Part shown: positions 85 to 38,321 of the stretch, in pieces | How positions within the stretch are numbered: the stretch's first letter is position 1 | Layout: every line of letters starts with the position of its first letter | Source: Myxococcota bacterium | GTDB lineage: Bacteria > Myxococcota_A > Polyangia > Polyangiales > Houyiibacteriaceae | DNA length: 64,000 nucleotides | Direction of reading: 5' to 3' | Assembly: GCA_039030295.1 (NCBI GenBank) | Contig: JBCCEK010000002.1 | Location: forward strand, 3,978-67,977 | The notes under the pieces: model-generated | Database searches by the model: none | What the model saw: only the letters and a program-made list of their open reading frames with translations | Told to the model about the DNA's origin: nothing | Program-made: the position numbers and the translations under genes

Positions 85-3000
85 ATGTCCCTGCTGAGTT
101 TCGGACGGAAGAAAAGAGAGCTCGACAAAGATCAGAAGGGCAACTTCAAGTACCCGGGGACGAGGGCGGCACTCGACGGGAACAGCGCCGTCATCATGTG
201 TGAGCGAGAGTCGAGCGACGCCGCGGGCGCGTACCCGATTACGCCCTCCACGCAGATGGGTGAGTATTGGGCCGAAGCGGCGGCCGCAGGCCACGTCAAC
301 GTGTCGGGGCGACCACTGATCTTCATCGAGCCTGAGGGCGAGCATGCCGCAGCGGCGGTAACCGCCGGTTTGTCGATGACCGGGCTTCGCTCCGCGAACT
401 TCTCATCCGGGCAAGGCATCGCGTACATGCACGAGTCCTTGTACGCAGCCGTCGGAAAGCGCCTGACGTACGTATTGAACATCGGCGCTCGCGCGATGAC
501 CAAAGCGACGCTCAACGTCCACGCCGGGCACGATGACTACCATTGCGTGGACGATTCAGGCTTCTTCCAGATGTTCGCGAAGAACGCGCAAGCCGCCGCC
601 GACCTGAACATCATCAGTCACCGGGTGGCGGAACTCGCGTTGACGCCAGGGATCATCGCGCAAGACGGCTTTTTGACGACTCATCTGATCGAATCGTTGA
701 TGGTTCCGGAGCGCGCGCTAATCGCCGAGTTCCTTGGAAGGCCCGACGACATCATCCCGACCCCGACTCCAGCGCAGCGAATCATCTACGGAGACAAGAG
801 ACGGCGCATTCCACTGCTGTGGGACGTGGACAATCCAATCATGGCGGGCCTGGTCCAGAACCAGGACGCTTACATGCAGAGTGTCGCCGCACAGCGGCCT
901 TTCTTCTTTGACCACGTCGAGGGTCTTGCCAACGATGCGTTCGATGAATTTCATGCGCTGACCGGACGACGCTACTCGCGGGTGATGACGTATCGGACCG
1001 AGGACGCGGAGTACTTGCTTCTCGGCCAGGGAAGCATGATTCCGTCCGCCGAAGCGGTGGCCGACTACCTTCGCGAGACCCGCGGTCTGAAGGTTGGCGT
1101 CGTGGACATGCTCATGTTTCGTCCCTTCCCGAGCGACCTGGTTGGGCGGCTTCTTCGCGGAAGGAAGGGAGTCGCGATACTCGAGCGCCTCGATCAACCG
1201 CTCGCTGCCGACTTGCCCCTCGTTCGAGAGGTCCGAGCCGTTCTCGGGAAGTGCGTCGAGAACGGAAAGAACCCAAAGCACCCCCCGTACCCGAGCCTCG
1301 AGACGTACACGTCGCTGAGCGACGTTCCACCGATCTACTCGGGGTCCTACGGGATGGGGAGCCGTGACCTCCAACCCGAAGGCCTCATCGGGGCGGTCGA
1401 GAACATGCTCGACGACGGGCCACAGAAGAAGCTGTTCTACCTCTCGATCGACTTTGTCGTCGACAAGGCCATCACGCCAAAGCAGGAGATGTACCTGCAG
1501 ACGATCGACGAGTCGTATCCGACCGTGAAGGAGCTCGCGATCAAGGGCTCCGAGAACCCAAACCTGATGCCCGCCGAGAGCATCACGGTGCGATTTCACT
1601 CGGTCGGGGGCTGGGGCGCTATCACGACAGGCAAGAACCTCGCGATGACGCTCTTCGAGCTTCTTGGGTACCACATCAAGGCGAACCCCAAGTACGGGTC
1701 GGAGAAGAAGGGACAGCCAACCACCTACTACCTGTCGGCCGCACCCGAGCCCATCAAGATCAACTGCGAGTACTTCTACGTCGATGTTGTGCTGTCGCCA
1801 GACCCGAACGTGTTCGGGCATACCAACCCGCTGGCGGGCCTCAAGGACGAGGGAGTCTTCATCATTCAGGGCGACCAGCCGTCACCCGAAGATGTTTGGA
1901 AGACGATCCCTCCCATGTATCAGAAGATCATCATCGACAAAAAGATCAAGGTCTTCTACATCGACGGCTTCGGGATCGCCCGCGACGAGGCCACCGATCC
2001 GGACCTCCAGCTCCGCATGCAAGGGATTGCTTTTCAGGGCGCGTTCTTCGCGGCATCCCCGGTCATGCGACAAGCAGGCTTGAGCGACGAGCAGTTGCTC
2101 GCCGCCATCCACGATCAGATCCGCGAGAAGTTCGGTTCGAAAGGCAAGCGGGTCGTCGACGACAACATTCGGGTCGTGAAGCGCGGCTTCGACGAGATCA
2201 GGGAGGTCGTTCCGGGCCCCATTACCGACAATGCGACGAAAACCTCGCACGCTGCCCCGAAGCTTCCCGTGATGGTCAAGTCGCTCCCTCAAAGCAAAGC
2301 CCCCATGACCGACATTCATCGGTTCTGGGAACAGACCGGGAGCTTCTACGCTCGCGGGATGGGCAGCGACAACCTCACCGACCCTTTCATCGGGCTCGGT
2401 GTGATGCCGCCCTCGTCCGCGCTCTTCCGGGACATGACGGGCATCCGTTTCGAGCACCCCGAATGGATTCCAGAGAACTGTACGGCTTGCGGCGATTGCT
2501 ACACGGTGTGTCCGGACACCGCCATCCCCGGGCTCGTCAACGAGGTGGGCCAGGTCTTCGACACCGTCGTCGACCGAGTCCGGAAGAACGGGCACGGAGC
2601 GGAGGTAGCCCACCTTCCCAAGGCGTCGCGCGTCGCCGAGCGCAACCTGCGCGCGCTCTTCAGTGAGACCGACGAGAGCGCGTCGGTCGATGCTCTCCTC
2701 GATCAGGCGATCGCCCAGACCGTTCGCGAGAGCGAGCTCCAAGGCGCCGACAAAGAACAGCTCGAGAAAGAGTTCGGCTACTTCAAAGAGGAGCTCAACG
2801 GTTTCAAGTTTGCCCTGACACGGCCGCACTACACCGTGCCCGAGAAGGACCAACCCGGCAGCGGCGGGTTGTTGTCGATCACGGTCAACCCCTACACCTG
2901 CAAGGGCTGCATGGAGTGCGTCCAGGTCTGCAGCGACGACGCCCTGCGACCCATCCGCCAAACTCCGGAGTCGGTCCAGCTCTTGCGAGACAACTGGGAC

Positions 3001-5046
3001 CTCTGGAGTGATCTTCCATCGAGCCCTTCGAAGTACATCCAGGTGGACGACCTGGATCAAGGGATTGGGACGCTCGAGTCGATCTTGCTCGACAAGTCGA
3101 ACTACCTCCAGTTCACAAGCGGCGATGGCGCATGCCTCGGTTGTTCAGAGAAGACGACGATGCACCTCTTCGTCGCCACGGTCGAGGCGCTGATTCGGCC
3201 GCGCATCACGAAACACCTCGTCCACCTCACCGAGGTCATCGCGCGGCTGCGGAAGCACATTCAGGTACAGCTCGCTGGCGATATCGACGTTGGGGACCCG
3301 GAAGCGATGGCCAAGATCGTAGACGACATCGGAGACCGGGACATCACGTTGGCGGCGATCGCCGAACGGATGGAAAGCGCGCATGGCGGCCAGCCGATCG
3401 ATCAAGACTGGTTGCGACGGATGACGCAGCTCGTCGCCCAACTCGAAGACCTGAAGTGGAAGTACACCGACGGAACCACAGGGCGCGGACGGACGTCACT
3501 CGGGATGATCAATGCTACCGGATGCACGTCGGTTTGGGGAAGCACCTACCCGTTCAACCCCTACCCGTTTCCCTGGGCAAACCACCTCTTTCAGGACACG
3601 CCGTCGATGGCCATGGGCGTGTTCGAAGGACACATGGCGAAGATGGCCGAAGGCTTCAAGGCCTTACGGATCGCCGAGCTCGAACTGAACGGCAAGTACG
3701 ACCCTGCCGAGCACGACGAGTTCTTCACCTACTTCGACTGGCGGCAGTTCACCGATGACGAGTGGGAGCTCTGCCCGCCGGTCGTGGCGGTCGGAGGGGA
3801 CGGAGCGATGTACGACATCGGCTTTCAGAACCTGTCGAGGCTCATGGCGTCCGGCAAACCGATCAAGTGCCTCGTCGTCGACACTCAGGTCTACTCCAAC
3901 ACGGGCGGGCAAGCGTGTACGTCCGGGTTCATCGGCCAGGTGTCCGACATGGCTCAGTTCGGCAAAGCCATCCAAGGCAAGCAGGAGCCGCGCAAGGAGA
4001 TCGGCCTGATCGGGATGGCGCACAGAAACACCTACGTGATGCAGAGCACCATCGCCCACTCGAGTCACATGATCGAAGGGTTCATCGAGGGGCTCAAGGC
4101 TCGCCGGCCGGCCCTCTTCAACATCTACAGCAACTGCCAGCCCGAGCATGGAATCGGTGACGACATGAGCGCCGCGCAATCGAAGCTCGCGGTCGAGTCT
4201 CGGGCCTATCCACTCTTTCGCTACAACCCAGACGCGGGCACGACGCCTCAGGAGTGTTTCGACCTCGAGGGCAACCCGGCGCCCGACGAGGACTGGCCTA
4301 CGTACACGATCAAGTACGAGGAAGGAGGCGCCGAGAAATCAATGGAGCTTCCCCTCACGTTCGCCGACTTTGCGGTCACGGAGATTCGCTTTCGAAAGCA
4401 GTTCCGAGTCGCGCCACCGGATACCTGGAACGAAAACATGGTCCCACTCGTCGACTTCCTCACGATGGACGAAGACGAACGCGAGGGGTCATTTCCTTAT
4501 GTTTGGATGGTGGACAACGACGGGCAGCTGACGCGACTGCTGGCCGCACAGCCCATCGTCGAGTCTTGCCAGGACCGCATCGACTTCTGGCGCATGCTGA
4601 AGGCGCTCGCCGGAGACGACCAACCGAGCGCCGAGTCGTTGGTCGAGCAGGCACGCCAAGATGTCGTCGGCAAGATCATGTCCGGGCTCATGCAAATGGC
4701 TGGTGGCCCAGGAGAAGGCCTGGCAGCGTTGGCGGGCTCGGGCGCCCTTGTCGATGGCGTTGGCGGGGAGCCGGCAGGGTCGTCGGCGAGCGGCGACTAC
4801 CTCGCCCCTTGGATCGACACGCCGGACTGCACGTCATGCGACGAGTGCGTGGAGATCAATCCCAAGATCTTCGAATACAACGCCGAAAAGAAGGCGGTCA
4901 TCAAGAACCCGGACGGGGGCCCCTACAAAGACATCGTCAAAGCGGCAGAGCGCTGTACCGCGAGGGTCATCCACCCGGGCTTGCCCAGGAACCAGAACGA
5001 GAAGGGCATCGACAAGTGGATCAAGCGGGCCGAAAAGTACAACTGA
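85..5046 (+). CDS. Pyruvate:ferredoxin (flavodoxin) oxidoreductase, single-polypeptide NifJ/PFOR type, unusually long (1653 aa), with an extra C-terminal ferredoxin-like module
   Basis: PFOR N-terminus GAYPITPSTQMGEYW. Internal 2x[4Fe-4S] domain motifs CTACGDCYTVCP and CKGCMECVQVCS. TPP-domain motifs GDGACLGCSEKT and GGDGAMYDIGFQNL. AVESRAYPLFRYNP near the canonical C-terminus. Additional CTSCDECVEINP...ERCTARVIHP module at the end. AAGGTGG lies upstream of the ATG. Confidence 0.9.
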   Translation: MSLLSFGRKKRELDKDQKGNFKYPGTRAALDGNSAVIMCERESSDAAGAYPITPSTQMGEYWAEAAAAGHVNVSGRPLIFIEPEGEHAAAAVTAGLSMTGLRSANFSSGQGIAYMHESLYAAVGKRLTYVLNIGARAMTKATLNVHAGHDDYHCVDDSGFFQMFAKNAQAAADLNIISHRVAELALTPGIIAQDGFLTTHLIESLMVPERALIAEFLGRPDDIIPTPTPAQRIIYGDKRRRIPLLWDVDNPIMAGLVQNQDAYMQSVAAQRPFFFDHVEGLANDAFDEFHALTGRRYSRVMTYRTEDAEYLLLGQGSMIPSAEAVADYLRETRGLKVGVVDMLMFRPFPSDLVGRLLRGRKGVAILERLDQPLAADLPLVREVRAVLGKCVENGKNPKHPPYPSLETYTSLSDVPPIYSGSYGMGSRDLQPEGLIGAVENMLDDGPQKKLFYLSIDFVVDKAITPKQEMYLQTIDESYPTVKELAIKGSENPNLMPAESITVRFHSVGGWGAITTGKNLAMTLFELLGYHIKANPKYGSEKKGQPTTYYLSAAPEPIKINCEYFYVDVVLSPDPNVFGHTNPLAGLKDEGVFIIQGDQPSPEDVWKTIPPMYQKIIIDKKIKVFYIDGFGIARDEATDPDLQLRMQGIAFQGAFFAASPVMRQAGLSDEQLLAAIHDQIREKFGSKGKRVVDDNIRVVKRGFDEIREVVPGPITDNATKTSHAAPKLPVMVKSLPQSKAPMTDIHRFWEQTGSFYARGMGSDNLTDPFIGLGVMPPSSALFRDMTGIRFEHPEWIPENCTACGDCYTVCPDTAIPGLVNEVGQVFDTVVDRVRKNGHGAEVAHLPKASRVAERNLRALFSETDESASVDALLDQAIAQTVRESELQGADKEQLEKEFGYFKEELNGFKFALTRPHYTVPEKDQPGSGGLLSITVNPYTCKGCMECVQVCSDDALRPIRQTPESVQLLRDNWDLWSDLPSSPSKYIQVDDLDQGIGTLESILLDKSNYLQFTSGDGACLGCSEKTTMHLFVATVEALIRPRITKHLVHLTEVIARLRKHIQVQLAGDIDVGDPEAMAKIVDDIGDRDITLAAIAERMESAHGGQPIDQDWLRRMTQLVAQLEDLKWKYTDGTTGRGRTSLGMINATGCTSVWGSTYPFNPYPFPWANHLFQDTPSMAMGVFEGHMAKMAEGFKALRIAELELNGKYDPAEHDEFFTYFDWRQFTDDEWELCPPVVAVGGDGAMYDIGFQNLSRLMASGKPIKCLVVDTQVYSNTGGQACTSGFIGQVSDMAQFGKAIQGKQEPRKEIGLIGMAHRNTYVMQSTIAHSSHMIEGFIEGLKARRPALFNIYSNCQPEHGIGDDMSAAQSKLAVESRAYPLFRYNPDAGTTPQECFDLEGNPAPDEDWPTYTIKYEEGGAEKSMELPLTFADFAVTEIRFRKQFRVAPPDTWNENMVPLVDFLTMDEDEREGSFPYVWMVDNDGQLTRLLAAQPIVESCQDRIDFWRMLKALAGDDQPSAESLVEQARQDVVGKIMSGLMQMAGGPGEGLAALAGSGALVDGVGGEPAGSSASGDYLAPWIDTPDCTSCDECVEINPKIFEYNAEKKAVIKNPDGGPYKDIVKAAERCTARVIHPGLPRNQNEKGIDKWIKRAEKYN

Positions 5047-5068
5047 GTCGCGACGCCACGGCGGACGG

Positions 5069-6406
5069 ATGAGACTGCTCGGCCTCAAGACGTTCCGGCA
5101 CGGGGTCCATCCGCCGGAGTCCAAGGACGAAACCAGCGGGTTGGCCATTCGGCAGTTTCCGTTCGCCCCGTTGCTCGTCGTCCCGCTGGTGCAGCACATG
5201 GGCGCCCCGTCAATCCCGGTCGTCGAAGAGGGGCAAGAGGTTGCCCGCGGCCAGCGGATCGCGCGGCCAGACGGCTTCATGTCGGTCGCCATGCACGCAC
5301 CTGCGTCTGGCACTGTGCGCCGGATCGCGCTCGCGCCAAGCATCACGGGTCGCATGGTCCCAGCGGTGTACCTCGAGCCGCTTCCAGGCTCGACCCAGGA
5401 GGTCGAAGATGGCACGCCTTGCGCGCTCGACACCGCGACACCGGAAGAGATCCTCGCTGCGATTCAGGAAGCCGGCATCGTAGGCCTCGGGGGCGCCGCG
5501 TTTCCCACTCACGCCAAACTGACGATCCCGGAAGGAAAGTTCGTCGACACTCTGATCATCAACGGGGTCGAATGCGAGCCATTCCTGACGACCGACCACC
5601 GGGTGATGCTCGAGCAGACCGAAGAGATCTTCATGGGGATCCGCTATCTCCTCAAGCTCACCAAGGCCGAGCGCGTGATCATTGGAGTCGAGGCCAACAA
5701 GCCCGATGCGGCGGCGCGACTCCAAAACGAGTTCCCGAGCGATATCGAAGGGTCGGTCGAGGTACTCCGCGTGAAGTACCCCCAAGGGGCGGAGAAAGTG
5801 CTCTTCTCCGCGCTCCTCGGTCGCGAAGTCCCTTCTGGCAAGCTCCCCCTCGACATCCACGCCCTGTGCTGCAACGTCGCCACGACCGCAGAGATCGGGC
5901 GACTTCTGCCACGCGGGCGGGGCATCCAAGAACGCGTCATCACGGTGACGGGGCCCGCCGTGAAGCGCAAGGGCAACTACCGGATCCCGATCGGCACCCC
6001 GCTGCGATTCGTTCTCGAGCACGTGGGCGTCGAGGACGACGTCAACCGGGTTTTCCTAGGCGGGCCGATGATGGGCGGCGCCGCGTCAAGCCTCGACATC
6101 TCGATCACCAAGGGGACGTCCGGCGTGACGGCCTTCACGCACGGCGCCGCCGCCCGTACCCATAGCCGGGTCTACCCCTGCATTCGCTGTGGCTACTGCG
6201 TCGACGCCTGCCCGATCTTCTTGAACCCCTCCGCACTTGGCAGGCTGGCTGCCAAGGACGAGCTGAACGCGATGGTCGAGGAGCAGAACCTCATGGACTG
6301 CTTCGAGTGCGGGTGCTGCTCGTTTGTATGCCCTTCGCACATCCCGCTCGTTCAGCAGTTCCGCGCAGCGAAAACCTCCGTCCGGAAAGCGCGGGCGGCC
6401 TCGTGA
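5069..6406 (+). CDS. rnfC: Rnf electron-transport complex subunit C
   Basis: 445 aa from the internal ATG (MRLLGLKTFRHGVHPPE) of ORF 4661..6406. GLGGAAFPTH motif. Two ferredoxin motifs, CIRCGYCVDACP and CFECGCCSFVCP. Lies 22 nt after the PFOR stop. Confidence 0.9.
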   Translation: MRLLGLKTFRHGVHPPESKDETSGLAIRQFPFAPLLVVPLVQHMGAPSIPVVEEGQEVARGQRIARPDGFMSVAMHAPASGTVRRIALAPSITGRMVPAVYLEPLPGSTQEVEDGTPCALDTATPEEILAAIQEAGIVGLGGAAFPTHAKLTIPEGKFVDTLIINGVECEPFLTTDHRVMLEQTEEIFMGIRYLLKLTKAERVIIGVEANKPDAAARLQNEFPSDIEGSVEVLRVKYPQGAEKVLFSALLGREVPSGKLPLDIHALCCNVATTAEIGRLLPRGRGIQERVITVTGPAVKRKGNYRIPIGTPLRFVLEHVGVEDDVNRVFLGGPMMGGAASSLDISITKGTSGVTAFTHGAAARTHSRVYPCIRCGYCVDACPIFLNPSALGRLAAKDELNAMVEEQNLMDCFECGCCSFVCPSHIPLVQQFRAAKTSVRKARAAS

Positions 6407-7431
6407 CGAACGCCGGGAAGACTCTCGAAATCCGGACGTCGCCACACATCTTGAGCGGCTACAGCGTCGACACGATCATGTTCAACGTTGTCCTCGCCCT
6501 GCTCCCGGTCGTCGCCTTCAGTGTCTTCGCGTTCGGGTTGCCGGCACTGCTCACCATCACGGTCGCGGTGGTTTCGTGCGTGCTCACCGAGGACCTTCTT
6601 TGCCGCCTGCGCGGCGAGCCCACCACAGTGGGCGACTGGTCGGTCACGATAACGGGCTTCCTTTATGGTCTCACCCTTCCCCCGGCGCTCCCTTTGTGGA
6701 TGGTGGCGATGGGCGGGGTGATCTGCGTCGCCATGGGGAAGGCCATGTTTGGCGGGCTCGGGTTCAACACCTTTAACCCGGCGCTCATCGGCCGGGCCGT
6801 TCTTCAAGCGGCCTTCCCTGTCTCCATGACGACTTGGATCCCGGGCTTCATGCCCGACCGTTTCACATCGTTGCCCGCATCGACACTCACGTTTCCGTTT
6901 GCGCAGCCCGCCGTCGACGCAGTCACCAGCGCAACGCCGCTCGCGCTTTGGAAGTTCAGCCACGAGAGCACGCCAACACTCGACCTGGCCCTCGGGACGA
7001 TCACGGGGTCGGCGGGAGAGACCTCGGGCTTGCTGATCGTCGTGGGAGGCCTCTACCTGATCGCCCGGAACATGATGAACTGGCGCATCCCGACGGCGAT
7101 CATCGGCGCAGTCGTGCTCCTCAGCGGCGCGCTCCACATGGTCGACCCGACCCAATATGCCTCGCCAGGTTTCATGGTGTTCTCGGGCGGGCTCCTCCTC
7201 GGCGCCATGTTCATGGCGACCGACCCGGTGGGATCACCCATGACCTCGCTCGGCTGCTACCTGTACGGCGCGCTCATCGGCGCCGTCACCGTGGTGATAC
7301 GTACCTGGGGAGGCCTCCCCGAGGGCGTCATGTACGCGATTCTGCTCGGCAACGCGCTCACCCCGCACATCGACCAGTGGACCCGACCGACCGTCTACGG
7401 CAGTCGGAAGGGCAAGGAGGTCGCGACGTGA
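6403..7431 (+). CDS. rnfD: Rnf complex subunit D (polytopic membrane, FMN-binding)
   Basis: GTG start overlaps the rnfC stop (GTGA). RTSPHILSG N-terminus, many TM segments, TSATPL flavinylation-type motif. Confidence 0.88.
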   Translation: MTNAGKTLEIRTSPHILSGYSVDTIMFNVVLALLPVVAFSVFAFGLPALLTITVAVVSCVLTEDLLCRLRGEPTTVGDWSVTITGFLYGLTLPPALPLWMVAMGGVICVAMGKAMFGGLGFNTFNPALIGRAVLQAAFPVSMTTWIPGFMPDRFTSLPASTLTFPFAQPAVDAVTSATPLALWKFSHESTPTLDLALGTITGSAGETSGLLIVVGGLYLIARNMMNWRIPTAIIGAVVLLSGALHMVDPTQYASPGFMVFSGGLLLGAMFMATDPVGSPMTSLGCYLYGALIGAVTVVIRTWGGLPEGVMYAILLGNALTPHIDQWTRPTVYGSRKGKEVAT

Positions 7432-8123
7432 GTGGGTCCGAGCTCGCACAACAACCGCCTTCGCCGAGTCCGTGGCCGATGTACCGCGCGATGGTCGGGG
7501 TCGGCGTCGCCTGCGGGCTCCTGATCGTGACCGTCTTCCAGGGGACGCTCCCGATCATCCAACGCAACAAAGCCGAAGCGCTTCAGAAAGCGATCTTTCG
7601 CGTGCTTCCAAAGGCGACGACGAGCGCGGCCTTCGGATTCGACCCCACGCGTGGATTCGTGTCCGACCCCGGTGACTCGCTGGGTATGCGTCGCGTGTAC
7701 GCGGGATACGACGACACAGGCGCCCTGGTGGGCGTGGCACTCGAGGCCCAAGGGATGGGCTATCAGGACGTGATCGGTATCATCTACGGGTACTCGTTTG
7801 AAGAGCACGCGATCATCGGGATGGAGGTGCTCGAGAGCAAAGAGACGCCGGGGCTCGGTGACAAGATCGAGACCGATCCCGACTTCGTCGCCAACTTCAA
7901 CCGGCTGGACGTCTCGTTGGCCGATGACGGCACCGGGCTTGCCCATCCCATCGTCGCGGTCGCGCGAGGGACCAAGACTGAGCCTTGGCAGGTCGACAGC
8001 ATCACCGGTGCGACGATCTCTTCGGAGGCAATTGCGGCGATCCTCAACGGGAGCGCACAAACCTGGGTACCTCGGATCGAGGGCCATCTGGACGACCTCA
8101 AACGAGGCAACGACAACCGATGA
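7428..8123 (+). CDS. rnfG: Rnf complex subunit G (FMN-binding, single TM)
   Basis: GTG start overlaps the rnfD stop (GTGA). One N-terminal TM helix. Covalent-FMN motif DSITGATISS. Confidence 0.85.
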   Translation: MSGSELAQQPPSPSPWPMYRAMVGVGVACGLLIVTVFQGTLPIIQRNKAEALQKAIFRVLPKATTSAAFGFDPTRGFVSDPGDSLGMRRVYAGYDDTGALVGVALEAQGMGYQDVIGIIYGYSFEEHAIIGMEVLESKETPGLGDKIETDPDFVANFNRLDVSLADDGTGLAHPIVAVARGTKTEPWQVDSITGATISSEAIAAILNGSAQTWVPRIEGHLDDLKRGNDNR

Positions 8124-8770
8124 CCACGAGGACCGCAAGCGATGAGTTCTTGAAGGGACTGTGGAAGGAAAACCCGGTCTTCGTCCAAGTCCTCGGCATG
8201 TGCCCCGTCCTTGCCGTGTCCAACACTGCGATGAACGCGCTTGCCATGGGGCTCGCGACCGCGTTCGTCCTCGTGATGTCCAACGCGGTGGTGTCCTCCC
8301 TTCGTCACTTCATCCCGAAACAGGTTCGGATCGCCACTTACATTTTGGTCATCGCGACCTTCGTCACGGTCGTCGACTATGCGATCCAGGCGATCAGCCT
8401 CGAACTCTACCGCGCACTCGGCGCGTTCATTTCGCTGATCGTCGTCAACTGCCTGATCCTCGGTCGCGCCGAGGCTTTCGCCTCCAAGAACACCGTCGGA
8501 CGTTCGGTGATGGACGGCCTTGGCATGGGGGTCGGGTTCGTGTTCGCGCTCCTCTTCCTCGGTGGCGTACGAGAGATCCTCGGTATGGGCTCCCTTTTTG
8601 GAGTGCGGCTGTTCCCGGACTCGTTCCAAGAATGGGTCGTGATGATCCTGCCGAGCGGCGGCTTCTTCAGCCTTGCCGGTTGGCTGGTGCTCTTCAACTG
8701 GCTCGAAAAGCGGAAGGCCGACAAGGCCGAGAGAGCCCGCGTCTCCGGGCTCCGCGGGGAGGTGGCGTGA
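8120..8770 (+). CDS. rnfE: Rnf complex subunit E
   Basis: ATGA overlap with rnfG. NPVFVQVLGMCPVLAV and VVNCLILGRAEAFASKN motifs of the RnfE/NqrD family. Confidence 0.88.
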   Translation: MTTRTASDEFLKGLWKENPVFVQVLGMCPVLAVSNTAMNALAMGLATAFVLVMSNAVVSSLRHFIPKQVRIATYILVIATFVTVVDYAIQAISLELYRALGAFISLIVVNCLILGRAEAFASKNTVGRSVMDGLGMGVGFVFALLFLGGVREILGMGSLFGVRLFPDSFQEWVVMILPSGGFFSLAGWLVLFNWLEKRKADKAERARVSGLRGEVA

Positions 8771-9351
8771 TGGCCGACGAGTCTCTTTGGACGATCTTCA
8801 TCAACGCGTCGCTCGTCAACAACTTCGTGTTGGCGTACTTCCTCGGCATCTGCCCGTTCCTCGGCGTCTCAGCGAAGCTCGCGACCGCGAGCCGAATGGG
8901 TGGCGCGGTCATGTTCGTGATGCTCGTCGCTTCGGTGTGCGCGTACGGGATCAACGCGTTGCTCGTGGCCATCGACGCCCCCTACTTGAGGCTCATCTCG
9001 TTCATCGCCGTCATCGCATCGACCGTCCAGCTCGTCGAGATGGTCATCAAGAGATTCAGCCCGGCACTCTTTCGAGCGCTCGGGATCTTCTTGCCGTTGA
9101 TCACGACCAACTGCGCGATCCTCGGGTTGGCGCTGTTTCAGACGAACAAGGGCTACGGCTTCGTGCAGTGCATCGTCTACGCGCTTGGCGCGGGCGTCGG
9201 GTTCACCTTGGCCCTTGTCTTGATGGCCGCCGCTCGGGAGAAGCTCGAGCTGGCGAACGTGCCGGACATCATGAAGGGGACCGCGCTCGCGTTGATGATA
9301 GCCGGATTCCTCTCGGTGACTTTCATGGGGTTCGGCGGACTTGGAGGATGA
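8770..9351 (+). CDS. rnfA: Rnf complex subunit A
   Basis: TGATG junction with rnfE. NNFVLAYFLGICPFLGVS and PLITTNCAILG motifs of the RnfA/NqrE family. Confidence 0.88.
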   Translation: MADESLWTIFINASLVNNFVLAYFLGICPFLGVSAKLATASRMGGAVMFVMLVASVCAYGINALLVAIDAPYLRLISFIAVIASTVQLVEMVIKRFSPALFRALGIFLPLITTNCAILGLALFQTNKGYGFVQCIVYALGAGVGFTLALVLMAAAREKLELANVPDIMKGTALALMIAGFLSVTFMGFGGLGG

Positions 9352-9355
9352 CGGG

Positions 9356-9571
9356 ATGCTCTATCACTACCTGATCGGAGTCGGTTCTGTGGTGTTGCTG
9401 TTCGCCTTGTGGATCCGCATCCAACGAGCGTGGAAGCGGTCGTTCTCGGAGGTCGGAAGCGACCCAGACGCGCTTGCGGGGCGCAGCGGCTGCCGCGGAT
9501 GCATCGACCCCTCAACCTGTAACCGGACGCCCAATAGCGGAGCCTGCATGGCTCGGGAGGAGAAGTCATGA
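9356..9571 (+). CDS. Small single-pass membrane protein with a four-Cys tail (C-x2-C-x5-C-x8-C); NqrM-like/unknown
   Basis: 71 aa, MLYHYLIGVGSVVLLFALWIRI (TM) ...SGCRGCIDPSTCNRTPNSGAC. GGAGGA sits 7 nt upstream of the ATG, 4 nt after the rnfA stop. Its stop overlaps the FNR start (ATGA). Confidence 0.6.
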   Translation: MLYHYLIGVGSVVLLFALWIRIQRAWKRSFSEVGSDPDALAGRSGCRGCIDPSTCNRTPNSGACMAREEKS

Positions 9572-10573: not shown

Positions 10574-12145
10574 ATGCAGACCGTTCCGAAGGCACTTCTC
10601 AAGACGCTCTACAACCATGCAAGCCTCCGCAACGACGAGGCCGGCGTTCAGTTCTCGGTCAAGAACAGGCTCGCTCCCGCAACGCTCAAGCGGGTCGACC
10701 GCGTCATTCTCGATGGGGAGGCGGTCGCGCCAGATCGAATTCGGGTGCGGATCGACGAAGGGGAGACCCTTCCGTTGACGAAGCTCGGCAATGGCCAAGA
10801 AGCGATCGACTTCCCGCTCGGCACGCTTCTCACGTTCAGCCTGAACGTGAGCAAGCTCGACCAGGGCGATCACACCCTCGAGCTTTCGTTCGAGACCGAC
10901 CCTTTTGGGGAGCTCGAGCTCGACGTCACCGACGCCGTCGACGCCCCGCGCGACCCCACAGCGATCCCGAGAGACGAAGCCAACGACTACGGCGAGGAGA
11001 TCATTCGCACGCGTCAGGAGTTCATCGAAGAGCGCACCGGAGTACGCCCGGAGCACATCGCGAAGTACGGTATCGACCCACACTCGACGGAGGGCAACAT
11101 CGAGCATTTCATCGGGACGGCGCAGCTCCCGGTTGGAATCGCGGGGCCGCTTCTCGTCCATGGAGAACACGCGGATGGCGAGTTCTACGTTCCGCTCGCC
11201 ACGTCCGAAGGCACGTTGGTCGCGTCCTACAACCGCGGCATGAAGGTCATCCACCGAAGTGGCGGCGTTCGCTGCTCAGTCGTCGGCGACAACATGCAGC
11301 GAGCGCCTGTGTTCGTATTCAGCAGCGCAACCGATGCTCGACACTTCGTCGACTGGATCGTCGAGAAGACTAGCGAACTCCAACGCGTGACGCACGAGTC
11401 CGACCCTTTCGTCGAACTCAAGCACGTCGACTACTACCTTTCAAACAGCTTCGCCTTCCTGCGGTTCAACTACACCACGGGAGACGCGGCCGGGATGAAC
11501 ATGGTCAGCAAAGCCACGTTCGCTGCCTGCAACTGGATCATGCAGAACTGCGACGCGATCGAGATCGTCCGGTTCTTCCTCGAGTCGAATTTCGCGACCG
11601 ACAAGAAGCACTCCACGATCAACACCATGCGCACTCGTGGGAAGCGCGTCACGGCGGAATGCGTGGTTGACCGCAACGCGCTCCGCGAGATCATGGGCGC
11701 CGACACAGAGATGCTGTACCAGCACTACAAGGTGGCGAATATCGGGTCGATGCTCTCGGGCACGAACAACAATGGACTGCACTCGGCCAACGCCATCACG
11801 GCAATGTTCATCGCGACAGGACAGGATGCCGCGAACGTCGCCGAGTCTTCGTCCGCGGTGCTGTACGCCGAACTGACCCCGGAGAAGAACCTATACATGT
11901 CGGTTACGCTGCCATCGCTGATCGTCGCGACGATGGGTGGCGGTACCGGGCTGCCAACGCAGCAAGAGAGTCTCGAGATCCTCGGTTGCGTGGGCAAGGG
12001 CAAGGTTCGAAAGCTCGCCGAGATCATCGCGGCCACCGTAATGGCCGGAGAGATCTCCCTGGCCGCAGCCATCTCCTCTCTCGACTGGGTCTCTTCGCAC
12101 GATCGCTACGGCCGGAACGACCCGACGAAAGCCGACAACTCGTAG
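10574..12145 (+). CDS. Hydroxymethylglutaryl-CoA reductase, class I catalytic domain, with an unknown ~135-aa N-terminal domain
   Basis: Class-I motifs TSEGTLVASYNRG, TGDAAGMNMVSKA, VATMGGGTGLPTQ, and a C-terminal SSHDRYGRN histidine region. The N-terminal 135 aa has no TM segment and no motif I recognise. Confidence 0.85.
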   Translation: MQTVPKALLKTLYNHASLRNDEAGVQFSVKNRLAPATLKRVDRVILDGEAVAPDRIRVRIDEGETLPLTKLGNGQEAIDFPLGTLLTFSLNVSKLDQGDHTLELSFETDPFGELELDVTDAVDAPRDPTAIPRDEANDYGEEIIRTRQEFIEERTGVRPEHIAKYGIDPHSTEGNIEHFIGTAQLPVGIAGPLLVHGEHADGEFYVPLATSEGTLVASYNRGMKVIHRSGGVRCSVVGDNMQRAPVFVFSSATDARHFVDWIVEKTSELQRVTHESDPFVELKHVDYYLSNSFAFLRFNYTTGDAAGMNMVSKATFAACNWIMQNCDAIEIVRFFLESNFATDKKHSTINTMRTRGKRVTAECVVDRNALREIMGADTEMLYQHYKVANIGSMLSGTNNNGLHSANAITAMFIATGQDAANVAESSSAVLYAELTPEKNLYMSVTLPSLIVATMGGGTGLPTQQESLEILGCVGKGKVRKLAEIIAATVMAGEISLAAAISSLDWVSSHDRYGRNDPTKADNS

Positions 12146-12160: not shown

Positions 12161-13066
12161 TCAGAGACTCGCACGCGCCCGGCGGAGGGTTTCAGCCGAG
12201 CGGGCCAATGCCTCTCGTTCAGACTCGTCCACCTCGGGCTCGAGGACCTCAACGGCGCCGTCCTTGCCGACGATCGTAGGAAGCGAGATGGCGAGATCCC
12301 GAATACCCATCGCTCCCTCTTGAACGCGACAAACCGTGAGAACGCGGCGCGTCCCGCGAAGCGCCCACCTGAGCAACGTGGACGTCACGACCCCAATGGC
12401 ATGATTGGTGGCGCCCTTTCTTGCGATGATCTCGTAGGCCGCCGTGCGCACTTCACGGGCAATCGCTGACTCATCCTCGGCGGTCCATCCAGGCCAACTT
12501 CGGACCGGGTTTCCGCCCACCCGAGCAAGAGACCACAGGACGACCTCGGAGTCCCCGTGCTCTCCGACCACCTGGGCGTGAATCGATCTCGCATCGACGT
12601 CCAATCGTCGTCCGAGTGCCTGCCTCAAGCGCGCGGTGTCGAGCATCGTCCCAGTACCGATCACTCTCTCGAGGGGTAGGCCGGAGGCTTCGGCGGCCAC
12701 CTGGGTCATCAAGTCGACGGGATTGGTGACCACGACGAGCATCCCGCGCAAGGATGCGAGCTGGCTGGCAATCGCACCGATGATCGCCGCGTTCGTTCGA
12801 AGGAGATCGAGGCGGCTGTCCGATGGACCCCCGCCTTTTCCGGCGGCAATGACAACCGCATCTGCATCTTGCATCTCCTCGATCGATGTCGCCTGAACGG
12901 TCGCCGAGGGATGAAACGCAGCGCCGTGACGGAGGTCCATCGCCTCTCCCTCCGCGAGCGCAGACCTAACGTCATGGAGCAGGAGTTCGGTGGCCACGCC
13001 GGCGTGCAGGATCGACGAAGCCACGCTCGCGCCGACCCAACCCATGCCGATGATCCCGATCTTCAT
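12161..13066 (-). CDS. L-2-hydroxyacid dehydrogenase of the LDH/MDH family (substrate unclear)
   Basis: MKIGIIGMGWVGAS Rossmann motif, VVTNPVD, SRLDLL, catalytic GEHGDS. The specificity-loop position is neither the LDH Gln nor the MDH Arg. Confidence 0.8.
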   Translation of the reverse strand: MKIGIIGMGWVGASVASSILHAGVATELLLHDVRSALAEGEAMDLRHGAAFHPSATVQATSIEEMQDADAVVIAAGKGGGPSDSRLDLLRTNAAIIGAIASQLASLRGMLVVVTNPVDLMTQVAAEASGLPLERVIGTGTMLDTARLRQALGRRLDVDARSIHAQVVGEHGDSEVVLWSLARVGGNPVRSWPGWTAEDESAIAREVRTAAYEIIARKGATNHAIGVVTSTLLRWALRGTRRVLTVCRVQEGAMGIRDLAISLPTIVGKDGAVEVLEPEVDESEREALARSAETLRRARASL

Positions 13067-13079
13067 GCGCCGCCGTCGC

Positions 13080-14942
13080 CTAGTACCGTTCGGGTGCGAG
13101 CTCCCAGACAGTCGGAGACCGCCAAAGGGCCGAGAGGGTCAATTCTCGCATGTGGCTGAACTCTCGAGGAAGCTTGTCGTAGAGTCGGTCAAAGAGCGAC
13201 TCTTGGTCGTAGAGTTCCTTCTTCCACTCCTCGCGGCCAACGCTCATGACCTCTTTGAACTGGTCGCGGGTGAAATCGAGGCCTCTCCAGTCGAGCTGCT
13301 CGTATTGTGGCATCCACCCGAGGGGGCTCTCGGTAGACCCTGCGCGGCCGCGCACGCGATCGACGATCCATCGAAGGACGCGCATGTTCTCCCCGAAGCC
13401 GGGCCACACGAACTTTCCGTTGTCGTCTTTGCGGAACCAGTTGATCAGGAAGATGCGAGGCGGCTTGGGTGTGCTGCGCCCAATCTCGAGCCAGTGGTTG
13501 AAGTAGTCCGCCATGTGGTACCCGCAGAAAGGCAACATGGCGAAGGGGTCGCGTCGAATCTTCCCGACCTCTCCGCCAGCCGCCGCCGTCTGCTCGGAGC
13601 CGATGGTCGCCGCCATGAACACGCCGTAGGCCCAGTTGAACGACTGAACGACGAGCGGCATGGTGCTCGCCCGACGGCCACCGAAAACGAACGCATGGAC
13701 CGGAACCCCAGCGGGGTCCTCCCAATCCGGGTCGATGACGGGGCACTGCGACGCTGGGGCCGTGAACCGGGCGTTGGGATGAGCGGCGGTCCGCCCGCTG
13801 TCCGGAGTCCAGTCGTCTCCCCGCCAATCGGTGAGCTTGGGCGGAGGTTCGTCGGTGAGCCCTTCCCACCACACGTCGCCGTCGGGCGTCAGAGCGCAGT
13901 TCGTAAAAATGCTATTGGCTTTACAAGACTCGAGTGCGTTCTTGTTGGACTTCTCAGAGGTACCCGGTGCCACACCGAAGAACCCGGCCTCCGGGTTGAT
14001 CGCCCGAAGCCGACCCCTGGCGTCTGGCTTGATCCAAGCGATGTCATCCCCAATCGTCGTGACCTTCCAGCCGTCCTCGGCAAAGGCCGTAGGGGGCACG
14101 AGCATCGCGAGGTTGGTTTTCCCGCATGCGCTCGGCAGCGCGGCTGCGATGTAGGTCTTCTCACCCTCCGGGCTTTCCACGCCGAGGATCAACATGTGCT
14201 CGGCAAGCCAACCTTCGTCCCGAGCCATCACCGAGGCGATTCGCAACGCGAAGCACTTCTTGCCAAGTAGCGCGTTGCCTCCGTATCCACTTCCGAACGA
14301 CCAGATCGCTCTCTCCTCCGGATAGTGGACGATGTACTTGTTCTCGTTGTTGCATGGCCACGAAACATCCTGCTGGCCTTCGCCGAGCGGCGCGCCCACG
14401 GAGTGTACGCATCGCACGAAGTTTGGCCCTCGGAGGTGTTGGTACGCTGCCTCGCCCATGCGCGTCATGATCTTCATGTTCACCGCAACATAGGCCGAGT
14501 CCGAAAGCTCGATCCCGATCTGTGAGATCTCAGAGCCGAGGGGTCCCATGCAAAATGGAATGACGTACAGCGTGCGGCCCGCCATGCATCCCTTGAAGAG
14601 TCCGGCGAGCGTGCTCTTCATCTCTTGGGGATCCATCCAGTTGTTCGTCGGCCCTGCGTCGTCCTTTCGCACGCTGCAAATGAACGTTCGGTCTTCCACG
14701 CGGGCCACATCGGCGGGATCGGAAAACGCCGCATAGGAGTTCGGGCGTTTGTCTTCGTTGAGCTTGACGAAGGTGCCTGCCTCGACGAGGCGATTGCAGA
14801 GCATTCCGTATTCTTCGTCTGAGCCGTTGCAGAAGTAGATGTCTGTCGGTTCGCAGAGTGTGGCAACCTCTCGAATGAAGCTGCGTGCCTCTTCGCTCTC
14901 GAGGCCGGATGGAAAGTCGATTGCGGTCGGGTCTAGGGTCAT
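13080..14942 (-). CDS. pckG: Phosphoenolpyruvate carboxykinase (GTP)
   Basis: [22 protein letters not shown] and [12 protein letters not shown] motifs typical of GTP-PEPCK. Start chosen at [10 protein letters not shown] (620 aa). The ORF is open upstream to 15038. The stop lies 13 nt from the LDH/MDH-like start. Confidence 0.88.
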
Positions 14943-15140
14943 GTCTGCCTCTCTCGAAGTTGCGTCCTTTGTACCCGGGATCTGATGCATGTCCACGCTC
15001 GACTCAACGCGGTTTCGAAGCGTCTCGGGCGATGTCACACGCTCGAAAAAAGACCGCCGGATCCGGCGCAGGCGATGCGGTGAATCGCGACAAACCGGCG
15101 CAAAAGCTGCATCGTCTCGGCCTAGGCGAGCGGCAGATGG

Positions 15141-37743: not shown

Positions 37744-37920
37744 ATGGCCGTCTACATCATGAGTTTCCTGCTCTTCTCGATCGCCGTCGCCGGGCTGTCC
37801 ATCGGCCTGCTGGCGGGTCGAGGAATCCGCGGTACTTGCGGCGGGCTCAACGGTCCGGACGGTTGCGGAGCGTGCGGCCGCGAACGTCGAGATAGCTGTC
37901 CGCGCCGGGGTAAACCATGA
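37744..37920 (+). CDS. nqrM: (Na+)-NQR maturation factor NqrM-like small protein (58 aa, absent from the supplied ORF track)
   Basis: Hand translation: MAVYIMSFLLFSIAVAGLSIGLLAGRGIRGTCGGLNGPDGCGACGRERRDSCPRRGKP. One TM helix plus four Cys including the G-[ST]-C-G-G motif. Starts 1 nt after the nqrF stop, and its stop overlaps the next ATG (ATGA). Confidence 0.7.
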   Translation: MAVYIMSFLLFSIAVAGLSIGLLAGRGIRGTCGGLNGPDGCGACGRERRDSCPRRGKP

Positions 37921-38321
37921 AAGCCGCGGACACGACCCGCGTCCGGGACTTCATGATACCGCGCCCCGTGATCCTCGGGGCCGACTCGGAGCTGCTCGAT
38001 GCCGCGAAGGTTCTGGTCGATCGCCAGATCTCGGGCGCCCCGGTCGTCGACGACAAGGGAACGCTCGTGGGCGTGTTGACGGAACGAGATCTCCTCGAAG
38101 CGGTCGTCGTCGCAGGATACCACGACGAAGGAGGCGGGCGCGTAGCCGACTACATGACCCGTGAGGTAGAGGTGGCACGCACCGAGGACACACTGTTCGA
38201 CGTCGCGAGGCGATTCATCGCTGGAACAGAGCGGCGGTTTCCCGTCATCGAAGACAACCGTATCGTTGGTCTCGTGACCCGACGCGATGTACTCCGCGTC
38301 GTCCTCGGCTCTCGAGGTTAG
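37917..38321 (+). CDS. CBS-pair domain protein
   Basis: 134 aa with two CBS repeats (VRDFMIPRPVIL...SGAPVVDDKGTLVGVLTERDLL; VADYMTREVEV...RFPVIEDNRIVGLVTRRDVL). Confidence 0.85.
   Translation: MKAADTTRVRDFMIPRPVILGADSELLDAAKVLVDRQISGAPVVDDKGTLVGVLTERDLLEAVVVAGYHDEGGGRVADYMTREVEVARTEDTLFDVARRFIAGTERRFPVIEDNRIVGLVTRRDVLRVVLGSRG

Follow-up and report, generated by a model that had tools for sequence, protein, structure and literature searches.

A conserved cysteine-rich single-pass membrane protein encoded between rnfA and a ferredoxin-NADP(H) reductase-like gene in a PFOR-Rnf module

A 64,000-nucleotide (nt) stretch of Myxococcota bacterium DNA (contig JBCCEK010000002.1; hereafter the window) encodes a 71-residue single-pass membrane protein, here called X, between rnfA and a gene for a plant-type ferredoxin-NADP(H) reductase (FNR)-like flavoprotein. 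We observed that X is a genuine, conserved gene and that it founds an uncurated small-protein family, present in neither Pfam-A nor NCBIfam. In every sampled case, judged from X-containing loci, X was found solely in a module that joins genes for a pyruvate:ferredoxin oxidoreductase (PFOR), an Rnf complex and the FNR. X is probably an iron-sulfur (Fe-S) accessory subunit or an assembly factor of this PFOR-Rnf-FNR complex. Ion-pumping redox enzymes of the Rnf and Nqr types are of central importance, and the finding bears on the assembly of their intramembrane Fe-S centre and on how Nqr gained an FNR-type entry subunit.

The X gene runs from an ATG at 9356 to a TGA at 9569–9571, and its translated product is MLYHYLIGVGSVVLLFALWIRIQRAWKRSFSEVGSDPDALAGRSGCRGCIDPSTCNRTPNSGACMAREEKS. 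The rnfA stop codon (TGA, 9349–9351) is followed by a 4-nt gap (CGGG) and then by X, whose stop codon shares an ATGA with the start of the FNR-like open reading frame (ORF; ATG at 9568). We could confirm the coordinates that a preliminary description of this DNA had given for the ORF, its Shine-Dalgarno-like GGAGGA (Table 1), the gap to rnfA and the overlap with the FNR. The same was true of the single N-terminal transmembrane (TM) helix (residues 2–29) and of the tail with four cysteines (C46, C49, C55 and C64; C-x2-C-x5-C-x8-C). Each junction from rnfC to the FNR gene in the window overlaps or is at most 4 nt long. X translation is tightly coupled to rnfA and FNR.

The gene order around X was conserved far beyond the window. 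Peptide patterns from close relatives, scanned against one genome per GTDB species, placed X in 33 loci. The carriers were nearly all metagenome-assembled genomes (MAGs) of Myxococcota/Polyangiales, with one Polarisedimenticolaceae and one bin labelled Enterobacteriaceae. Around 125 further loci were obtained from exact-protein look-ups and from a degenerate DNA pattern scan of metagenomes; because the latter pattern admitted C-x-C variants of fixed spacing only, four-Cys members are favoured in the sample. Synteny was then censused by tblastn over 155 X-containing loci. We observed rnfA directly upstream of X in 136 of the 139 loci with enough sequence, and slightly further upstream in the remaining three (seen for L071 and L074). 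The FNR, which the preliminary description had treated as mere context, proved to be the invariant downstream neighbour, lying directly after X in all 135 loci with downstream sequence. The order PFOR-rnfC-D-G-E-A-X-FNR was kept in every locus long enough to show it, and all related loci retained the ORF, with its Cys core, after rnfA. The gap between rnfA and X was mostly 3–5 nt; in 53 loci the X stop and FNR start shared an ATGA (4 nt), and the remaining gaps were mostly below 30 nt. A minority of loci, L071, L074 and L144 among them, have spacers of 100–480 nt that separate X from rnfA or from FNR. GC content across the loci ranged from 0.36 to 0.70, and the module is thus distributed among very different lineages.

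Three loci of the census merit separate mention. The 'uncultured Enterobacteriaceae' MAG (L041; CAZZLC010000043.1) carries the whole module, and its X is the most distant one that the genome scan found (34% identity); the label looks questionable, or the contig may have been assigned to the wrong bin. In L038, X matches fell in two frames at 8001–8208 (residues 1–36 and 30–69), and in L022 rnfC, rnfD and FNR were each broken into several frames at 3713–9086. Both are MFD-series MAGs, and these frame splits are more likely assembly indels than pseudogenes.

We observed a broad family of X proteins. A word-indexed search returned 12 close homologues (54–74% identity), all of 69–72 residues. An exhaustive profile search, which covered 1.84 billion cluster representatives, extended the family to 344 clusters at 50% identity (E ≤ 0.001; 94 with E ≤ 1e-10), nearly all 55–100 residues long and matched end to end. 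All source names were 'hypothetical protein'. Window X had no match at E ≤ 1 in Pfam-A (2025 copy) or NCBIfam (release 20), and the family profile had none at E ≤ 10 among PDB sequences. Across 20 Myxococcota-type X genes, 19 of the 21 invariant amino-acid columns used more than one codon, so it is the protein sequence itself that is under conservation. Conservation together with this synonymous variation rules out a spurious ORF of a GC-rich genome.

Conservation was concentrated on one side of the helix and around the cysteines. In an alignment of 147 diverse members (alignment A2), W19 and D38 were invariant, and V22, Q23, W26, F30, L40, A41, R43, C46, C49 and C55 were at least 90% conserved. 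The consensus of this alignment was TM...W..VQ.AWRR.FP....D.D.LAGR.GC.GC.C...C, in which a motif beyond the helix (D38-x-L40-A41-x-R43) precedes the Cys core (C46-x2-C49-x5-C55). W19, V22, Q23, W26 and F30 share one helix face within an arc of ~100 degrees, a pattern expected where two helices are in fixed contact. AlphaFold2, run with the 147-sequence alignment, predicted the single helix with high confidence (predicted local distance difference test, pLDDT, >90). The Cys tail scored 55–64 and was given no autonomous fold, which fits metal- or partner-dependent folding. Among 262 members, a mean of 2.2 Lys/Arg residues followed the helix and no net positive charge preceded it. Because these residues come after the helix, the sequences indicate an N-out/C-in topology, in which the Cys tail of ~45 residues would be cytoplasmic.

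Four cysteines were present in 210 of the 262 members and the C-x2-C-x5-C core in 182. The commonest motif was C-x2-C-x-C-x3-C, which was invariant in a low-GC subgroup (alignment A4). The clade of the window carries instead a variable extra Cys ~8 residues after the core; this residue, C64 in window X, was absent in 3 of 13 close homologues. The four-Cys tail of the preliminary description is thus true of window X itself, but only C46, C49 and C55 are conserved. At the C-terminus (window 9535–9568 in X), many high-GC members have an acidic tail (..EEExx, for example AQEEMP or EEEER), and low-GC members have Lys-rich tails. An acidic tail could mimic the acidic ferredoxin surface that docks on FNR.

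The best NCBIfam matches of the FNR-like protein were the PetH-type (cyanobacterial) FNR (2e-43) and the BoxA reductase domain (7e-40), with NqrF far behind (1e-18), all below the equivalog cut-offs. The protein contains just one Cys and lacks an Fe-S domain, unlike NqrF and BoxA, in which an Fe-S domain is fused to the reductase. The protein ends in ...ELLY; plant-type FNRs end in a terminal aromatic residue.

Our leading reading, held tentatively and with less than even confidence, is that X is an obligate Fe-S or metal-binding accessory subunit that couples the FNR to an Rnf variant, and not a maturation factor for Rnf at large. The position of X among structural genes, together with the presence of an FNR beside every sampled X, favours an accessory subunit that docks the FNR. 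Where RnfB is present it is encoded after the FNR, and X does not lie at an operon end with maturation genes. A general factor for the RnfA/RnfE cluster would be expected also in rnf operons without an FNR, and every sampled X is FNR-linked. We infer metal binding by X, contact with the FNR and with RnfA/RnfE, and a role in electron transfer. The conserved helix face, at the cytoplasmic end of the helix, would pack on the Rnf membrane core, most likely on the RnfA/RnfE pair encoded just before X. The cytoplasmic knuckle D-x-LA-x-R-x2-C-x2-C-x(1)C-x3-C would provide the ligands of a metal centre. An Fe-S cluster made by an X dimer or with a partner is the most likely candidate, suggested by analogy with RseC, whose motif of the same spacing binds one. 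X would thereby tether the soluble FNR to the complex, and it may relay electrons between the FAD of the FNR and the intramembrane [2Fe-2S] centre of RnfA/RnfE. X and FNR could thus act as a split NqrF, with an anchor helix, an Fe-S centre and an FAD/NAD(P)H module.

Several points weigh against a coupling subunit. Four cysteines within 10 residues are an unusual single-chain ligand set for a stable cluster. The Myxococcota clade that includes window X has lost the third Cys of C-x2-C-x-C-x3-C, and some members keep three cysteines only. Neither the 150 best family members nor the loci contained an X-FNR or X-Rnf fusion, and the physical contacts of X with the FNR or Rnf are putative. The whole module is conserved together, so linkage cannot separate a tie to the FNR from a tie to the module, and the absence of X from canonical Rnf was judged from X-containing loci alone. 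To our knowledge, the small Cys-rich single-pass proteins of the Rnf/Nqr superfamily have so far been maturation or accessory factors (NqrM), not subunits resolved in structures.

A maturation role comparable to that of NqrM is a serious competing explanation, which we rate as somewhat less likely than the coupling subunit. X would then hold iron or an Fe-S cluster for a time on its cytoplasmic Cys motif and pass it to the intramembrane Cys4 site of RnfA/RnfE, as a functional counterpart of NqrM or possibly of RseC, and would be missing from the mature enzyme. X is built like NqrM (~60–70 residues, an N-terminal TM helix and a cytoplasmic tail usually with four cysteines), and it is encoded right after the genes of the subunits that hold the intramembrane Fe-S centre. 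RnfA and RnfE retain paired Cys motifs; these, and those of NqrD and NqrE, occur in the window exactly as the preliminary description had quoted them. NqrM has been reported to be needed for inserting the intramembrane cluster of NQR (PMC12174285, PMC6209661).

The window also contains a complete nqrA–F set (~31.9–37.7 kb), followed by a small Cys-rich ORF. This nqr-terminal ORF had been described as identical in architecture to X; it does share one TM helix and four cysteines, but its Cys spacing is C-x8-C-x2-C-x7-C. Its 31 homologues have an invariant GTCGGLN, CGACG and final Cys (alignment A3). Pfam NqrM matched 1 of the 32 members of this family, at 14.8 bits against a cut-off of 22 (residues 22–54 on model positions 1–29 of 43), and no precomputed Pfam domain was listed. 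By position and motif, the nqr-terminal ORF is plausibly a divergent NqrM. There is no apbE between nqrF and this ORF in the window. The ORF overlaps a gene for a tandem-CBS-domain protein by 4 nt (37917–38321, forward strand). A separate Cys-rich ORF of this kind in the same genome, with its weak sub-threshold NqrM match, suggests one factor per complex.

Direct comparison of X with the nqr-terminal family gave an ambiguous result. The hhalign match between the two had a probability of 50.8% over 45 columns with 18% identity; it covered the TM helix and CxxC only, and composition alone can yield such a match. X has W..VQ..W...F and D.LA.R, which are absent from the nqr-terminal family, and it lacks the GTCGGLN of that family. 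Of the two profiles suggested in the preliminary description, DUF539/NqrM (PF04400) matched none of the 147 X members, even at E ≤ 1, and FeoB_associated matched two at E ≥ 0.2. Well-studied Rnf complexes assemble the RnfA/RnfE cluster without a reported small factor (ApbE only in PMC12174285; PMC11729352). X lies between structural genes rather than at the operon end, and its neighbour in all 135 loci with downstream sequence is the FNR gene. A maturation role accounts for the place of X behind rnfE and rnfA and for its NqrM-like build; it accounts less well for the FNR-only occurrence of X and for its extensive conserved motifs outside the cysteines. For the earlier proposal of an Rnf-specific NqrM counterpart, conservation held and we found no clear profile match to an unrelated family, but there was neither an NqrM match nor a tie to operons without RnfB.

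The preliminary description also held that no dedicated equivalent of NqrM is described for Rnf, which overlooked RseC/RnfF (PMC11729352). RseC, which has two TM helices, works alongside RsxABCDGE in the SoxR-reducing system; an oxygen-sensitive Fe-S cluster forms on its conserved cytoplasmic CX2CX5C motif, and it depends on its N-terminal domain to interact with the Rsx complex (PMC11729352). R. capsulatus RnfF carries the RseC motif, and a study cited in the same paper ties C. ljungdahlii rseC to rnf; in V. cholerae and A. woodii, Rnf is assembled in the absence of RseC (PMC11729352). Our search of the literature on small Cys-rich rnf-operon proteins returned nothing specific but RseC. In hhalign, X C46/C49/C55 aligned on E. 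coli RseC C26/C29/C35, over 20 columns and with a probability of 2%. RseC_MucC (PF04246) was the most frequent weak match of the X family (5 of 147 members, best E 0.12; E. coli RseC as control, 1.5e-32). Membership of X in the NqrM, FeoB_associated, RseC or RnfB families was rejected, with no significant profile match to any of them. On the sequences compared, the likeness of X to the nqr-terminal ORF, RnfB and RseC appears to be one of motif and architecture, with no demonstrable homology.

It is unlikely that X descends from the N-terminus of RnfB, as an anchor helix with the first Cys motif that would act as a minimal RnfB-like module for Fe-S entry or anchoring and would replace RnfB where none is adjacent. 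X does occupy the slot after rnfA; in rnfCDGEAB-type (clostridial-type) operons, rnfB follows rnfA. The RnfB proteins of the loci have the same layout, namely a TM helix, ~22 residues with F/Y-x-E/D-D-P...D-x-L, and C-G-x-C-G. We found no RnfB in the 64-kb window or in the 41 Myxococcota-type loci (L001–L041, up to 8 kb of flank), although RnfB may be encoded elsewhere in genomes without a local copy. When the X family was compared with 27 RnfB sequences from the loci, hhalign aligned the TM helix, acidic linker and CxxC in register, but at a probability of only 11% (46 columns, 28% identity). The Cys spacing is C-x2-C-x5-C in X versus C-x2-C-x4-C in these RnfB proteins. The FeS domain PF04060 matched none of the 147 X members, and Fer4-type domains matched at most three (E ≥ 0.0017).

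RnfB was also found together with X. Three loci (L043–L045) carry, right after the FNR, a 288-residue RnfB with PF04060 FeS, Fer4 and its own TM helix. RnfB-like matches were seen in at least 44 metagenome loci, where full-length RnfB accompanies X and there is no replacement; in low-GC lineages, rnfB is the next gene past the FNR. Among the 69 loci with at least 2.6 kb of downstream sequence, 20 had RnfB. The X proteins of distant RnfB-bearing members were 34–45% identical to window X. The suggestion that X co-occurs with RnfB-less rnf operons thus did not hold, and X as a truncated RnfB or as a marker of RnfB-less operons is ruled out by its co-occurrence with full-length RnfB.

Myxococcota lineages are generally regarded as aerobic, and PFOR is oxygen-sensitive. 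Least probable of the alternatives to a coupling subunit is a structural zinc knuckle or a thiol/disulfide switch, with X as a tether or a redox- or oxygen-sensing regulator: C-x2-C-x-C-x3-C, with four cysteines within 10 residues, is as much like short Zn/Cd-binding or disulfide motifs as like Fe-S ligands, a Cys position is shifted or lost in the Myxococcota clade with the gene retained, and the oxygen-sensitive PFOR of carriers, Myxococcota MAGs included, makes a protective switch plausible, but there is no positive sign of zinc or disulfide chemistry, the cytoplasmic location of the tail disfavours stable disulfides, and the closest motif precedent, RseC CX2CX5C, binds Fe-S (PMC11729352).

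The remaining genes of the module are listed in Table 1. The PFOR has POR_N, PFOR_II, POR and TPP_enzyme_C domains, and its C-terminal ferredoxin domain matched Pfam Fer4_13 at residues 1577–1630. It is ~1640–1650 residues long and lies upstream of rnfC in all long loci. The window PFOR is ~480 residues longer than common PFORs. RnfA matched Pfam Rnf-Nqr (3.2e-55) and NCBIfam TIGR01943 rnfA (3.6e-70, above the cut-off). For rnfG, an AGGAGG lies at 7415–7420, and translation could alternatively begin at an ATG at 7479. A Pfam scan of 20 larger window ORFs, a subset of all ORFs, did not reveal ApbE. Directly past the module, the window encodes an HMG-CoA reductase with HMG-CoA_red_N (10574–12145, forward strand), an Ldh-family lactate/malate dehydrogenase (12161–13066, reverse strand) and a GTP-dependent phosphoenolpyruvate carboxykinase (13080–15038, reverse strand). 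These three all act at the pyruvate/acetyl-CoA node and are not kept beside the module elsewhere.

Table 1. Features of the window around X and at the end of the nqr genes
Feature	Position	Strand	Remarks
PFOR, 1653 residues, with fused C-terminal single-cluster ferredoxin domain	85..5046	+	First gene of the module
rnfC	5069..6406	+	tblastn synteny at 60–86% identity; homologues have RnfC_N, Complex1_51K, Fer4
rnfD	6403..7431	+	GTG start; GTGA overlap with rnfC stop; homologues have NQR2_RnfD_RnfE, 338–341 residues
rnfG	7428..8123	+	Probable GTG start; GTGA overlap with rnfD stop; FMN_bind in homologues
rnfE	8120..8770	+	ATGA overlap with rnfG stop; motifs GMCPV, VNCLILG
rnfA	8770..9351	+	TGATG overlap with rnfE stop; motifs GICPF, TNCAILG
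Shine-Dalgarno-like GGAGGA	9343..9348	+	Within the end of rnfA, 7 nt before the X ATG
X, 71-residue single-pass membrane protein	9356..9571	+	Finding under study
Plant-type ferredoxin-NADP(H) reductase-like flavoprotein, 291 residues	9568..10443	+	Pfam NAD_binding_1, 9.9e-10
58-residue ORF after nqrF, one TM helix, four Cys	37744..37920	+	C-x8-C-x2-C-x7-C

Neither X nor the PFOR-Rnf-FNR module was described in the literature searched, including a 2025 review of RNF and NQR (PMC12174285). That review lists ApbE as the sole maturation factor for Rnf and RnfH as the sole extra subunit (PMC12174285). The module may represent an undescribed Rnf subtype. X is called hypothetical by annotation pipelines, or may be missed by them. 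Its family is tied to a module of eight or nine genes that is conserved in lineages of 36% to 70% GC. As a subunit, X would indicate an Rnf variant connected to NADP(H). As a maturation factor, it would be an Fe-S insertion protein dedicated to an Rnf-type complex, of a kind that goes unmentioned in the 2025 review. A bolder proposal, which we regard as rather unlikely, is that X and FNR form a two-gene entry module facing NAD(P)H and ferredoxin, and that PFOR-RnfCDGEA-X-FNR(-RnfB) is an unrecognised third type of Rnf/Nqr ion pump. Were this so, the Fe-S centre of X would relay electrons between the FAD of the FNR and the RnfA/RnfE cluster, and the pump would have both an NAD(H) site (RnfC) and an NADP(H) site (FNR). 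In that case the module would also offer a present-day parallel to the recruitment of an FNR-type reductase to an Rnf ancestor that gave Na+-NQR.

Compared with known systems, X shares with the FeoB-associated proteins (PF12669) a small size, a single pass and a Cys-rich tail, and no feoB occurred in any X gene context examined. Its resemblance to NqrM lies in size, single pass, a cytoplasmic tail usually with four cysteines, and a position downstream of genes for two subunits that hold an intramembrane Fe-S centre. Unlike NqrM, X has a different Cys spacing and a linker of ~22 residues with its own conserved motifs between helix and cysteines, and it is encoded between rnfA and FNR, not after nqrF/apbE. 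Like RnfB, it follows rnfA and has an N-terminal anchor helix, a similar linker and a CxxC-containing motif; unlike RnfB, it is without ferredoxin-like 4Fe-4S domains and has the longer second spacing of its Cys core. With RseC it has in common a membrane anchor and a cytoplasmic C-x2-C-x5-C. RseC has ~159 residues, a Cys domain N-terminal to two TM helices and no link to an FNR, whereas X has ~70 residues, with a single TM helix that precedes the Cys motif. The differences from NqrF are that X and FNR are separate genes in all 135 loci, that the X tail, at ~45 residues, is not long enough for a plant-type ferredoxin fold, that neither X nor the 147 members had a Fer2 match, and that the module FNR is closer to PetH/BoxA-type reductases than to NqrF. 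As a working analogy, X and FNR together nonetheless resemble NqrF in combining an anchor helix, a putative Cys-ligated centre and an FNR-type flavoprotein beside the Rnf/Nqr core.

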